From the NCBI GenBank assembly GCA_000004695.1, contig CM000150.2:1920001-1984000 (forward strand): DNA of 64,000 bases. The letters are read 5' to 3'. This document shows positions 50,455 to 56,748 of the stretch, one piece after another. The notes beneath the pieces were generated by a model. The model searched no databases and was not told the DNA's origin. It was given only the letters and a program-made list of their open reading frames with translations. Both the position numbers and the translations under genes were made by a program. The first letter of the stretch is position 1. Every line of letters starts with the position of its first letter. This stretch comes from Dictyostelium discoideum. Taxonomy: Eukaryota.

Positions 50455-50527
50455 GCCTGGATGGCTCAGTAGGCAGAGCGAGCGGCTGTTAACCGCTAGG
50501 TCCATGGTTCGATCCCATGTCTAGGCG
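50455..50527 (+). tRNA. tRNA-Asn (anticodon GTT), copy 2. It is identical to copy 1.
   Basis: A 73/73 nt match to 36750-36822. The ~35 bp immediately upstream are also similar (aggagcaaaaaaa.gaaa.ttcatcaaaaatg). Confidence 0.9.
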
Positions 50528-50716
50528 ATATTTTTTTTAAGGTTTTTCCATTTAAAAAACAAAAAAAAAAAACCGAAAAAACAAAGAAATAAACGAGAAT
50601 TTATACATATAATAAATAAATCACTGTTATATCTTCACCGCCACATTCATTCCTCTTAATTTTACCCTTTTTTTGCTCAGTAAAGCAAGGGCTATCGTCC
50701 TATATACTTTTCAACA

Positions 50717-51925
50717 ATGGCTGATGATCACTCAACTGAATTACAGTTAAATCATACAGATAACAACACAACCAATACAAATAATACCTCCACAACCTCA
50801 ACAACAAAAAACAAAAGTGCAAAAATCGACACACCTAAAAAACAAACCCCAACAAACCAACTCTCACTAAACAAAGGACTTGATAATCAATTAGATATCA
50901 TTGCACCTCCATCAATCACAAGACCACTCTCTTTCTTAGAAAAAAACAATAACACCATCAACATTAAGTGTTACTTTAATCAACCACACATCCGTGAAGA
51001 ATTAACCTCAAAAGATGACACAAGAATTCAACAAATTCACAAAAACATTCACAAACTCTTCGAAGATATACTGTCGCCATCAGCATTCAAAATAATTGGT
51101 GCAACTGCCTTCGTAAATTGCAACGTTGATAAATTAACTTCAATAATCAACCTTCAAAACCAACTTGCACTAAATATCGACAAACTCAACTATAGATTCG
51201 ATATATCATCAAATGATTATGCAATCATTAAAACATTCATTAAAACGTACTCACCCAAACATGCAAACGATGCAATTACAAACAACCTCACTAAATTCAC
51301 CAGTTGTACATCAATTGAATCATTTACTGTCACATACTCATATGCTGTTGCGTTGAAAAGCTACATTATAACATATCATCTAATTGATCACACACACAAC
51401 ATTGTTGATCAAAAGATCGAACAACCATCTGGTATCACAAGATATATCAAAGCTGCAACACGTAGTGTCACTAAACACAAAATTCAACATGCAAAAAATG
51501 CAGATATGGCAACAACTATAAAAAATGCCATCACAAACCCAAACATGAACAAAAACAATCAACCACCAAAAAACAACATTAACACCCCACCAATCAACGA
51601 AATTGCAAATTCCAACCGCAATAATAACTCACTTCAAAATAGTGGTTCAAAAGCTATACTAAATGAATCACTTGATATTAACAATCAATCCCAAAACAAT
51701 AATGAAATTTCACACAAAAGTGATTCTTCAAATAATAATAACGGGAAAAACTCATTATCAATAAGCAATCCAACCGATCCAACAATTGTACCACAAAAAC
51801 CTCTACAATCTCAACCAAACAAACCAAGTGCACCAACTCCAAATCCAATAAATACAAGAAGAAGCAGCAATGCCCTGACTACACAACCAGTCAATACTGG
51901 TGCTGCCAAACCTAGTAAGGTATGA
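50717..51925 (+). CDS. TRE3 ORF1 (402 aa).
   Basis: ORF track. Its stop overlaps the ORF2 start (gtATGAgc). Confidence 0.75.
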   Translation: MADDHSTELQLNHTDNNTTNTNNTSTTSTTKNKSAKIDTPKKQTPTNQLSLNKGLDNQLDIIAPPSITRPLSFLEKNNNTINIKCYFNQPHIREELTSKDDTRIQQIHKNIHKLFEDILSPSAFKIIGATAFVNCNVDKLTSIINLQNQLALNIDKLNYRFDISSNDYAIIKTFIKTYSPKHANDAITNNLTKFTSCTSIESFTVTYSYAVALKSYIITYHLIDHTHNIVDQKIEQPSGITRYIKAATRSVTKHKIQHAKNADMATTIKNAITNPNMNKNNQPPKNNINTPPINEIANSNRNNNSLQNSGSKAILNESLDINNQSQNNNEISHKSDSSNNNNGKNSLSISNPTDPTIVPQKPLQSQPNKPSAPTPNPINTRRSSNALTTQPVNTGAAKPSKV

Positions 51926-55700: not shown

Positions 55701-55748
55701 AACACTAATGAACCAATTCCAACAATTACACCACCAATTAATTATTAA
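52671..55748 (+). CDS. TRE3 ORF2, reverse-transcriptase part (1025 aa).
   Basis: ORF track. The RT and zinc-knuckle motifs are as listed for the TRE3 mobile element at 50554-55876. Confidence 0.75.
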   Translation: MDIIPGTANDHEAINIINHLITNHNNTSINQFTNWSKVKSKIIKTLKNYQYNKDKQTQRAKQILLEKAAKFKHLEEQCIAEYNIICNKNKLHQNHTNILKKHINGEIPSKYLSAILNKRSKDAKIESIQYGNIITSDPDQIENAFVEFYTNLYSLQICCPITHQLMLNTWPIIKNEYWNGLDSPFIQDEVEAAIKTCNPNKSPGPDGVTNAFYINHLNQVKPILTTLFNDILENPHHITTEFTEGLIHTIYKKGNPLLISNRRPITLLNTDYKILSKVINARLLRILPFIINNNQTGFVPHRFIIDNIININELINYLKSKNLPGIITLFDFFKAFDSISHDSIKRTLIHIGIPIKLINLIHKLLSDSQAKISINGKTTRKFDIKRGVKQGDPISATLFVIVIEILARTINADNSIIGLPISPNPQIKIKFTQFADDSTTYNINYEQQQQSIKHFDNFCASTSSSLNFDKSAIIEINPHKITDKHIINNIPQSKRIPITKKDQSERVLGYFFNHNGLHRKFPETMKTLIKSLVLWKTSGTTLKTKTTIINTYSLSPITYLSYLEEFTKDEEIQINKLISWFMNSPANSESPTLDTNSIENNTSTIHSRAKIPLMCYDRSLKPLKEGGWGMWNIQLRQVAQKIWIYNRFLQMHKSANNSIYMISWMDQIINKSISSPYLIKIKKEWENYATQIGHLKDKVQILQPILTKNQPSQTLNTNNISLPPTLKEIYSTILNNHQCKSKDYIGKKYSDLLLTSHQQSIQLLWKYTYDQLFVKIQKLKDPKGRDTMQRFHARCLPINHLHNKVCPICNNEMNNDPYGHLFFNCQHTINFINHDKLKYFIYKNCNGNKNWSLTKNQTTKLYTLIYKPQTNNKAFKPDPTININFHFAENAQYKKYRFNWNYINTNLDLVRTHAYWNIISLVIHQIWIWLCKSLFDINITQSIDNWNNQINNTTLDYDILKSKWHKLIRLEYSRRLSNFNQFSIKNNLTKTQKETQWSETIKKFKKEWSINTNEPIPTITPPINY

Positions 55749-56748
55749 TTACCTAATCTAAAATAACATACTATTTTAAATTCACAAAAACTAAAAAACC
55801 TAAAATAAATAAATAAAAATAACATACTAGTTGTATACTACAATAGTTTATTTATATCAAAAAAAAAAAAAAAAAAGTTTTTCCATTTGTCGCATGTTCG
55901 ATTCTCTATCAAATGGGAGATTTATAAAAGAATTAACCTATTTTTGCAATTGTGATTTCCTTTTATGAATTAACACTAATTAATCAATATTAAAAAAAAA
56001 AAGGTTTTGCGATAATAAATTAATATTAAAATAATAAAAAAACATTCCCTTTTTATAAATAATAATTTAGGATGCAAGTAATTTTAGAAATGTGAATAAA
56101 TAAAATTACGAAAATATTAATGAATAATAAAAAAAAAATTGTTTAGAAAAAAAAAAAAAAAAAAAAAAATGGAATATTTTTTGATAAAAAAAAATAAAAT
56201 AAATAAAATAAAATCTGAGTTAATTTTTTTTTATTACAAATTATCTGATGAACGATCTGGTTTGCGTAAAAAAAAAAAAAAAAAAAAAAAAAATCGATTG
56301 CCCATTTAAATTAATTAACCACCTTTAAATTTTGTGTAAAAACAATTTTGATTATTTTTTAAATTTTATTTTTTATTTGCAGTTATTCTTTTTCTCAAAT
56401 TATTAATTAATCACGCAAAAAAAAAAAAAAATTACGATCTGTGGATTCTTTTTTTTTTTTTTTTTTGCAAACCAAAGACAATAACTGCTTTGAAAAAAAA
56501 AAAAAAAAAAAAAAAAAAAAGATTTTTTTTAATTTTTTATTTTTGGTTCTTTTTTTTTTCTTATAAAAAATATCTAAAAAATAAAAATTTTTTTTTTTTT
56601 TTTTTTTTTTTTGATTTTATTTTTATTTTTATTTTATTCATATTGGAAATTAAATTTATCTATTTAAATTTTATCATAATTAATTTTGTATGTATTATCT
56701 TTTCTAAAACAATTGTTTTCAAACCAATCTATTTTTGCACCCAACGAA

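Follow-up and report, generated by a model that had tools for sequence, protein, structure and literature searches.

TREs are non-long-terminal-repeat (non-LTR) retrotransposons that are found next to tRNA genes. [quoted passage not shown] TRE3 elements lie 3' of tRNA genes and in the same orientation (PMC5911963), at distances of 14-305 bp from the tRNA gene in the Dictyostelium discoideum subfamilies (PMC5006619, Table 1). TRE5-A (also known as DRE) belongs to the same superfamily, shares the domain order of ORF2, and is likewise targeted to genes transcribed by RNA polymerase III (Pol III) via B-box-dependent factors (PMC5911963, PMC3159450), but its insertion sites are about 50 bp upstream of tRNA genes, and it lies in the opposite orientation. 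Further afield, mammalian LINE-1 elements also have an APE endonuclease and a reverse transcriptase, use target-primed reverse transcription (TPRT), and leave target-site duplications (TSDs) of variable length and a poly(A) tail; most copies of LINE-1 and of non-LTR elements in general are dead on arrival or inactivated by truncation, by point lesions, or by indels. LINE-1 differs in that it does not target tRNA genes and in that its ORF1 is unrelated.

Here we describe a TRE3 locus in a stretch of 64,000 nucleotides from chromosome 1 of D. discoideum AX4 (contig CM000150.2, positions 1,920,001 to 1,984,000; hereafter, the window). We are confident that the locus contains a full-length but defective TRE3 copy that inserted by TPRT 3' of a tRNA-Asn(GTT) gene, that the insertion is young and polymorphic, and that ORF2 of this copy is split by the loss of one C. 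The element family, its targeting, the external B box (exB) beside it, and the locus itself are already known and annotated. What is new is that the insertion is polymorphic between the laboratory lineage and wild isolates and that the annotated gene DDB_G0268944 is a frameshift fragment.

A TRE3 element between a tRNA-Asn gene and its external B box

The features of the locus, in window coordinates, are listed here. L001a and L001b are two copies of the family, in tandem at another locus (L001).

50455-50527, plus strand: tRNA-Asn(GTT), the insertion target (ARAGORN gives 50454-50528 here, and 73 nt for the identical gene at orthologous loci)
50507-50515, plus strand: core of the internal B box of the tRNA-Asn(GTT) gene, GTTCGATCC (match to the motif GTTCRAnYC)
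50532-50539, plus strand: run of eight T, the presumptive Pol III terminator of the tRNA-Asn gene (read from the sequence; it lies upstream of the insertion and was left intact)
50542-50553, plus strand: left copy of the TSD, GTTTTTCCATTT (12 bp, exact repeat)
50554-50716, plus strand: 5' untranslated region (UTR), from a comparison of the 5' ends of the window copy, L001a, and L001b
50717-51925, plus strand: ORF1, 402 amino acids, intact (from the list of ORFs)
51922-52731, plus strand: endonuclease ORF, the 5' part of ORF2, 269 amino acids (PF03372, Exo_endo_phos, E = 2.8e-14)
52671-55748, plus strand: RT ORF, the 3' part of ORF2, 1025 amino acids, annotated as DDB_G0268944 (PF00078, RVT_1, E = 1.3e-30)
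52681-52682, plus strand: site of a 1-nt deletion, with C lost after 52681 (intact copies read TTATCACCT, and the window reads TTAT-ACCT)
55749-55858, plus strand: 3' UTR (aligns with other copies up to its end, TTTATTTATATC)
55859-55876, plus strand: oligo(A) tail, A18 (read from the sequence)
55877-55888, plus strand: right copy of the TSD, GTTTTTCCATTT (12 bp, exact repeat, directly after A18)
55889-55906, plus strand: exB of the tRNA-Asn gene, GTCGCATGTTCGATTCTC (fits GTCnnnnGTTCRAnYC exactly)

The element itself occupies 50554-55876 (5,323 bp), in the same orientation as the tRNA-Asn gene, and its GC content is 31%, versus 22.7% for the whole window. The first 19 nt or so of its 5' UTR (A6 C A12) vary among copies, and the common sequence begins with CCGAAAAAACAAAG at 50573. 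ORF1 has no Pfam match and no recognizable domain, and it differs by only 3 substitutions from the ORF1 part of the predicted protein P0002 (the part ahead of that gene model's artificial splice). The apurinic/apyrimidinic-type endonuclease domain, at amino acids 8-231 of the endonuclease ORF, is complete (Pfam model positions 1-225). Within the RT ORF, the RT domain is at amino acids 252-482 (about 53424-54116, with FADD at 53970) and is followed by a C-terminal CX2CX10HX4C zinc-finger motif at 55086-55145. No terminal or internal repeats were found: blastn of the element against the whole window gave the full-length self-match alone.

Relative to ORF1, ORF2 of TRE3-A occupies the -1 frame (PMC5911963). 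ORF2 of the window element is likewise in the -1 frame, but it has its own ATG, which overlaps the stop codon of ORF1 as ATGA (51922-51925). This overlap would also permit reinitiation at ORF2.

The locus has the properties expected of TRE3: a non-LTR layout (5' UTR, two ORFs, 3' UTR, and oligo(A)); APE, RT, and zinc finger in this order; and a position 3' of a tRNA gene in the same orientation, at 26 nt (within the published 14-305 bp), with a TSD and an empty site. A preliminary description of this stretch, made from its letters without database searches, had called the element TRE3-type, and the structure, domain order, position relative to the tRNA gene, and identity to a known 'pol' protein (see below) all agree with that.

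According to ARAGORN, the window contains two tRNA-Asn(GTT) genes of identical sequence (36749-36823 and 50454-50528). For the second gene, the preliminary description put the start at 50455, which is also where the 73-nt ARAGORN calls at the orthologous loci would place it. Downstream of this gene, the sequence reads GCG-A-TA-T8-AAG, then GTTTTTCCATTT, and then the A-rich start of the GC-richer block. As a rule, a run of T such as this T8 terminates transcription by Pol III. The interval from the 3' end of the tRNA gene to the first base of the element is 26 nt (50528-50553).

The 12-bp GTTTTTCCATTT occurs exactly twice in the window, and neither side of the repeat can be extended. When we scanned 58,465 pairs of positions with the same spacing, shared 12-mers containing all four bases were found at just 29 overlapping positions (0.05%), which we take to be the true repeat itself, their number being about that expected for one overlapped repeat pair. 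This spacing-matched scan, together with the empty orthologous sites described below, rules out a chance repeat in place of a TSD. The preliminary description had reported these 12-bp repeats, had stated that they bracket exactly a unit of ORF1, ORF2, and oligo(A), and had placed the insertion 26 bp 3' of the tRNA; on re-inspection the repeats are exact and unique to this pair within the window, they enclose a 5,323-bp block that ends in A18, and the gap has the length given.

To compare alleles, we took the locus of the neighboring kinase, plus 10 kb on each side, from seven other assemblies (L003-L009), all of them from the Dictyostelium genome set of PMC12745789. The kinase exon that flanks the element (57801-58802) falls in a 90%-identity cluster with XP_646888.1, a RAC-family kinase homologue and the product of the next gene. 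One of the seven loci (L006, from GCA_054883475.1) shares 99.6% identity with the window over 16.6 kb and contains the same element with the same TSD. The other six are element-free, and each has the tRNA-Asn gene, a single copy of the target, and a B box roughly 24-29 nt after the tRNA. These six are from three assemblies labelled D. discoideum (L007, L008, and L009), one labelled D. cf. discoideum (L005), and two labelled D. citrinum (L003 and L004).

The homology of the empty loci to the window ends at about 50534 and starts again at about 55938-55955, and the target stretch is present once, as a diverged copy. For example, L007 reads CTAGGCGAGATTTTATAAGATTTCTTCATTTGTCGCGGGTTCGACTCTCAGTCAAATGATA, which is colinear with the reconstructed empty site of the window, CTAGGCGATATTTTTTTTAAGGTTTTTCCATTTGTCGCATGTTCGATTCTCTATCAAATGGGAGA. 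The empty-site alleles in other isolates prove that this is an insertion. The check that the preliminary description had proposed, a search for the empty site in other D. discoideum strains, was thus positive at six orthologous loci. Both young and polymorphic, the insertion is carried by AX4 and L006, and it is missing from four wild isolates of the discoideum clade and from two D. citrinum assemblies. It could be used as a lineage marker, as both AX4-lineage assemblies are filled and the wild isolates and D. citrinum assemblies that we examined are empty.

Beyond the right copy of the TSD lies a B-box motif, TGTTCGATTCTC (55895-55906), whose core GTTCGATTC (55896-55904) matches GTTCRAnYC. 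Of D. discoideum tRNA genes, 66% have an external B box about 41 bp downstream, and the extended consensus of these boxes is GTCnnnnGTTCRAnYC (PMC3159450). The 9-mer GTTCRAnYC is not rare by itself (8 matches in the window versus 4.1 expected); half of the 8 matches are the internal B boxes of the two tRNA-Asn genes and two same-strand motifs that lie about 28-34 nt after each of these genes. After the other tRNA-Asn gene, the motif is GGTTCGATTCTC, 28 nt past the gene, with its core at 36853-36861. In the reconstructed empty site, the motif GTC...GTTCGATTC begins 27 nt past the tRNA and its core at about 34 nt. Furthermore, all six of the empty orthologues keep a B box at this place (GGTTCGACTCTC, GGTTCGATTCTC, GGTTCGATTCC, or GGTTCAATTCT; that is, GGTTCGA(C/T)TC or a close variant). 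The shared position at both tRNA-Asn genes and the conservation at six orthologous loci rule out a chance match and imply that the exB is genuine. Thus, the element has moved a conserved exB 5.3 kb away from its tRNA-Asn gene, and the preliminary description, which had the element separating the tRNA from a putative exB, is upheld by the B boxes of the six empty orthologues.

An exB of the form GTCnnnnGTTCGATTC follows both tRNA-Asn genes of the window at a nearly equal distance, if the second gene is taken as it was before the insertion (36824-36864 for the first gene; 50528-50553 plus 55889-55906 for the second). The GTC signature is typical of internal rather than external B boxes (PMC3159450). 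The displaced exB begins with T, at 55895, while the six empty orthologues and the paralogous tRNA-Asn locus begin with G (GGTTCGA... or GGTTCAA...). This T-for-G difference of the filled alleles is a single substitution at the base before the core; the core GTTCRAnYC is unaltered, and we draw no conclusion from it.

The split of ORF2

The endonuclease and RT ORFs overlap by 61 nt (including the stop codon) in different frames, with the RT frame at -1 relative to the endonuclease frame. The preliminary description had counted 60 nt, which holds as an approximate figure, and had proposed either a defective copy or a programmed frameshift. A protein search with the RT ORF returned 99%-identical proteins in which the endonuclease and the RT occur together. 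At the site of the frame change, P0001 (DDB_G0291958, 1275 amino acids) and several others read SSPFQINKHKKRWILSPGTANDHEAIN, while the two frames of the window give KRWILY and MDIIPGTANDHE. We retrieved 23 proteins of the family. Besides the window copy, 16 of these span the junction, and all 16 are continuous (KRWILSPGTANDHE; KRWILSPGT(A/I)NDHE); only P0130, which is the window copy, starts with MDIIPGT. The 90%-identity cluster of P0001 includes a 1,275-amino-acid D. discoideum 'pol' protein (AAD43057.1 / Q9Y1H5), which is also continuous at the junction. The accession range and date of AAD43057.1 fit the original TRE3 consensus submissions, so it is presumably a member of that consensus set. 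In a tblastn comparison, amino acids 1-253 of AAD43057.1 align to 51922-52680 and amino acids 255-1259 align to 52683-55697, each at 99.6% identity. More distant elements are continuous from the endonuclease into the RT as well: this is true of a sister family (L002, 42% identity) and of a metagenomic relative (P0010, 43% identical).

At the DNA level, the difference from an intact copy is a single nucleotide. L001a (L001:3843-9157, from GCA_054883475.1, downstream of a tRNA-Lys gene) is intact and 99.3% identical to the window element, and, leaving aside the variable 5' end and the tail, the missing C is the only indel between them. If the C is restored, then ORF2 becomes an uninterrupted frame of 1,275 codons that differs from AAD43057.1 at 5 of 1,275 residues, with 4 of the differences in the RT part. 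Without it, the endonuclease frame runs for 16 codons out of frame after codon 253 and reaches a premature stop. The ATG at 52671, where the RT ORF starts, is out of frame in intact copies and is fortuitous; the deletion puts it in the RT frame. The shifted ATG and the 16 codons before the stop of the old frame explain the apparent overlap of the two ORFs. These comparisons indicate that the frame split is a simple inactivating 1-nt deletion that is private to this copy and has no function, and that the copy is almost certainly unable to transpose on its own.

The alternative that we find least credible is a programmed -1 ribosomal frameshift, which would set the ratio of an endonuclease-only protein to the full ORF2 polyprotein. 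The 61-nt overlap and the -1 direction are what such a frameshift would need, and translation from ORF1 into ORF2 in TRE5-A and TRE3-A is said to require a -1 frameshift (PMC5911963), so recoding has precedent in the family. But the frame change is private: 16 family proteins, including the 1,275-amino-acid 'pol', are continuous, as are the distant relatives (the sister family and P0010), and the intact copy L001a differs by exactly one base at the site. Also, inspection of the zero-frame codons across 52669-52731 revealed no slippery heptamer of the form X XXY YYZ. We therefore reject a programmed frameshift, as the frame change is not conserved in functional members of the family and the heptamer is absent. 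Of the two options in the preliminary description, the defective copy stands, with one C missing, and the programmed frameshift falls, as the consensus is continuous. That description had also named a continuous family ORF2 as the sign of a simple indel, and continuity is what we see in AAD43057.1 (1,275 amino acids) and the 16 proteins.

An error of sequencing or assembly, with an intact ORF2 at the true locus, deserves hardly more credence. The AX4 reference was assembled long ago from Sanger reads, the genome is very AT-rich, and indels of one base are generally the commonest error in such data. However, GCA_054883475.1 is an independent assembly from long and short reads, and its L006 locus shows the same TTATACCT; across the 5.6 kb that align (window 50400-56000), L006 differs from the window by one substitution only. 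Because L006 carries the same deletion, the lesion is real and a reference error can be rejected. Furthermore, the deleted base is not within a homopolymer.

It also seems very unlikely, if a little less so, that the split copy still functions by making the endonuclease and an RT/zinc-finger protein (from the ATG at 52671) separately, with the two cooperating in trans. Apart from the split, both halves are intact, all of the endonuclease domain is present, the RT part is only 4 residues off the consensus, and the RT ORF is annotated as a gene; and Pp_NLTR-B of Polysphondylium encodes APE, RT, and RH in individual ORFs (PMC5911963). On the other hand, the position of the internal ATG does not favor its use, as more than 1.9 kb of mRNA and two ORFs precede it. 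Nor has the arrangement been propagated. It is seen in one copy only, and no daughter copies bearing the deletion were seen in the protein set or among seven other DNA copies (at L001 and L010-L013), of which L001a was compared at the level of single bases and the others by blastn only.

The split also bears on the gene annotation at this locus. The RT ORF is 100% identical over 1025 amino acids to P0130 / XP_646887.1, the hypothetical protein DDB_G0268944 (D. discoideum AX4, chromosome 1). Rather than being a gene in its own right, DDB_G0268944 is the 3' piece of a TRE3 ORF2 broken by a frameshift. The GenBank models for GCA_054883475.1 join ORF1 and ORF2 via artificial introns, as in P0002 (1596 amino acids, L001 4001-9033). 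At L006 3354-8385, the orthologue of the window locus, a 1566-amino-acid model with endonuclease and RT domains spans the frameshift site. Both the fused models in GCA_054883475.1 and DDB_G0268944 in AX4 are annotation artefacts of a retrotransposon.

Subfamily and related elements

The element probably belongs to the subfamily TRE3-B, judging from its length and its relative abundance. Table 1 of PMC5006619 gives consensus lengths of 5,229 bp (TRE3-A), 5,279 bp (TRE3-B), and 4,734 bp (TRE3-C). Counting from the first CCG that the copies share through the final base ahead of the tail, the core is 5,286-5,287 bp in the family of the window element (5,287 bp in the window copy) and 5,221 bp in the sister family. 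If the window family is TRE3-B and the sister family is TRE3-A, then each length is off by 8 bp, while the reverse assignment gives a discrepancy of 58 bp for each. The sister family is also more abundant (79 members in its protein cluster, versus 13 + 29 for the window family), which matches the 67 copies of TRE3-A and 43 copies of TRE3-B in AX4. Together, abundance and length lead us to TRE3-B.

Compared to TRE3-B (formerly RED), the window copy has the same non-LTR structure, with ORF1, an ORF2 in the order APE-RT-ZF (ZF for zinc finger), and oligo(A); it lies 3' of a tRNA gene in the same orientation; and its core (5,287 bp) and the consensus differ in length by 8 bp. It differs in that it lacks one C after 52681 and in its distance of 26 nt from the tRNA. 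The TRE3-B consensus is reportedly that of Szafranski et al. 1999 and Glöckner et al. 2001. The only pairing of a gene with the subfamily name that we found is DDB_G0291686, which is given as 'TRE3-B ORF2' (PMC12405889); that protein is outside the set that we compared.

TRE3-A (Tdd-3) shares the architecture and the targeting 3' of tRNA genes, and its range of 14-228 bp would include the window copy (PMC5006619). The sister family (L002, P0012 cluster), which fits the length of TRE3-A where the window element does not, differs from the window element: its ORF2 is 42% identical, its ORF1 has 416 amino acids, and its core is 5,221 bp. In its ORF2, the frame is open from the endonuclease region into the RT, and the 1,059-amino-acid models that contain only the RT merely start at an internal ATG. 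The endonuclease region of the sister family (L002 3466-3500) begins with IKINQWNVRGWG; there is no ATG in frame near this point, and the region lies in the -1 frame with respect to ORF1. This suggests that the window family, with its ATGA overlap, and the sister family may start the translation of ORF2 differently.

Several points weigh against our overall interpretation of the locus. The subfamily call was made by length (5,287 versus 5,279 or 5,229 bp) and abundance only. The distance of 26 nt falls just below the range given for TRE3-B, 34-188 bp (PMC5006619, Table 1). This misfit could reflect a different way of measuring the distance, or the subfamily call could be wrong; we speculate that the distance would be about 34-45 if it were measured past the variable A-rich leader, to the start that BLAST can align. 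The loss of the C is compatible with an origin either during reverse transcription or after integration. Finally, GCA_054883475.1, the source of the second filled allele, is probably the laboratory strain AX2-214, to judge from its near-identity to the window and from PMC12745789.

The window also contains a second non-LTR element, on the minus strand at 30932-35700, with an ORF2-like frame at 30932-34153 (1073 amino acids) and an ORF1-like frame at 34366-35700 (444 amino acids). Its best tblastn match is P0036 (43.7% identity), whose family we take as a candidate TRE5. The ORF2 of P0036 is about 33% identical to that of the TRE3 element described here. The 5' end of the minus-strand element points toward the first tRNA-Asn gene (36749-36823), as in the TRE5 arrangement.

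Insertion mechanism and the position of the external B box

The element most likely inserted by TPRT 3' of the tRNA-Asn(GTT) gene, in the same orientation. In the standard geometry of TPRT, the bottom strand would be nicked at the left edge of the 12 bp, which is 14 nt after the tRNA and just past T8, and this end would prime the synthesis of cDNA on the poly(A) end of the transcript. The top strand would be nicked 12 nt further along, directly before the exB. Nicks in these places would give both the 12-bp duplication and the oligo(A) end beside the right repeat. By analogy with what is known of TREs, the site was presumably selected via the Pol III transcription-factor complex on the B boxes (PMC5911963, PMC3159450). 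A normal ORF2 specifies a single endonuclease-RT-zinc-finger polyprotein of 1,275 amino acids; the lost C truncates the endonuclease frame and leaves the RT and zinc finger separate.

In this scheme, the first nick is just 14 nt after the tRNA and the second is at the edge of the exB, which is unusually close. This raises the idea that a factor on the exB guides the placement of TRE3, which could then insert on either side of it, in addition to inserting at a set distance downstream of a B box. If true, then the filled alleles (AX4 lineage) and empty alleles (wild isolates) would be a natural experiment on how an exB moved 5.3 kb away affects tRNA expression. We consider this idea unlikely. 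We fetched four further loci of the same family (L010-L013) from GCA_054883475.1. At L010, the element lies after another tRNA-Asn gene, with the TSD CTCTCAAATATC, 61 nt past the gene and about 20 nt past the exB. At L013, a 5'-truncated copy lies after a tRNA-Ala(AGC) gene, and its 10-bp TSD GTGTTCAATT (4081-4091, 7339-7349) is inside the exB, 32 nt past the gene, so insertions that disturb an exB are not unique to the window locus. The copies at L011 and L012 are the second members of TRE-TRE tandems. L001a has a 17-bp TSD that ends 50 nt after the tRNA-Lys gene. In the resulting sample of four loci, the insertion is before the exB (the window), within it (L013), after it (L010), or ambiguous (L001), and the window copy is the most proximal. 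Although the sample is very small, this spread disfavors a strict rule for placement relative to the exB.

The L001 locus has some peculiarities of its own. Its site was struck at least three times, by the two TRE3 copies that form a tandem and by a mini-insertion. Also, at L001 3813-3860, the left TSD, TTTTAGTATTACCAAAA, is separated from the conserved 5' end of L001a by a B-box-like stretch, GGTTCAAATCCCAGAAAAAAGT. This stretch could be a 5' transduction from a source copy located just past an exB, or it could be extra nucleotides at the 5' junction. Lastly, a 16-nt sequence, TACACCGCTTTTAGGT, followed by A12-A15, is present at two unrelated tRNA loci (L001 at about 9164-9194 and L013 at about 7359-7386), with its own flanking repeats (GTATTACCAAAA and GAATTGTTCAAAATC). 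These units resemble insertions of another TRE family with an extreme 5' truncation that kept just the last 16 nt and the tail.

The value of these results lies mainly in correct annotation. The locus is a textbook case of a non-LTR insertion targeted to a tRNA gene, with an exact TSD, an oligo(A) tail, and empty alleles, and the separation of the tRNA-Asn gene from its exB could serve in tests of exB function that compare filled and empty alleles.

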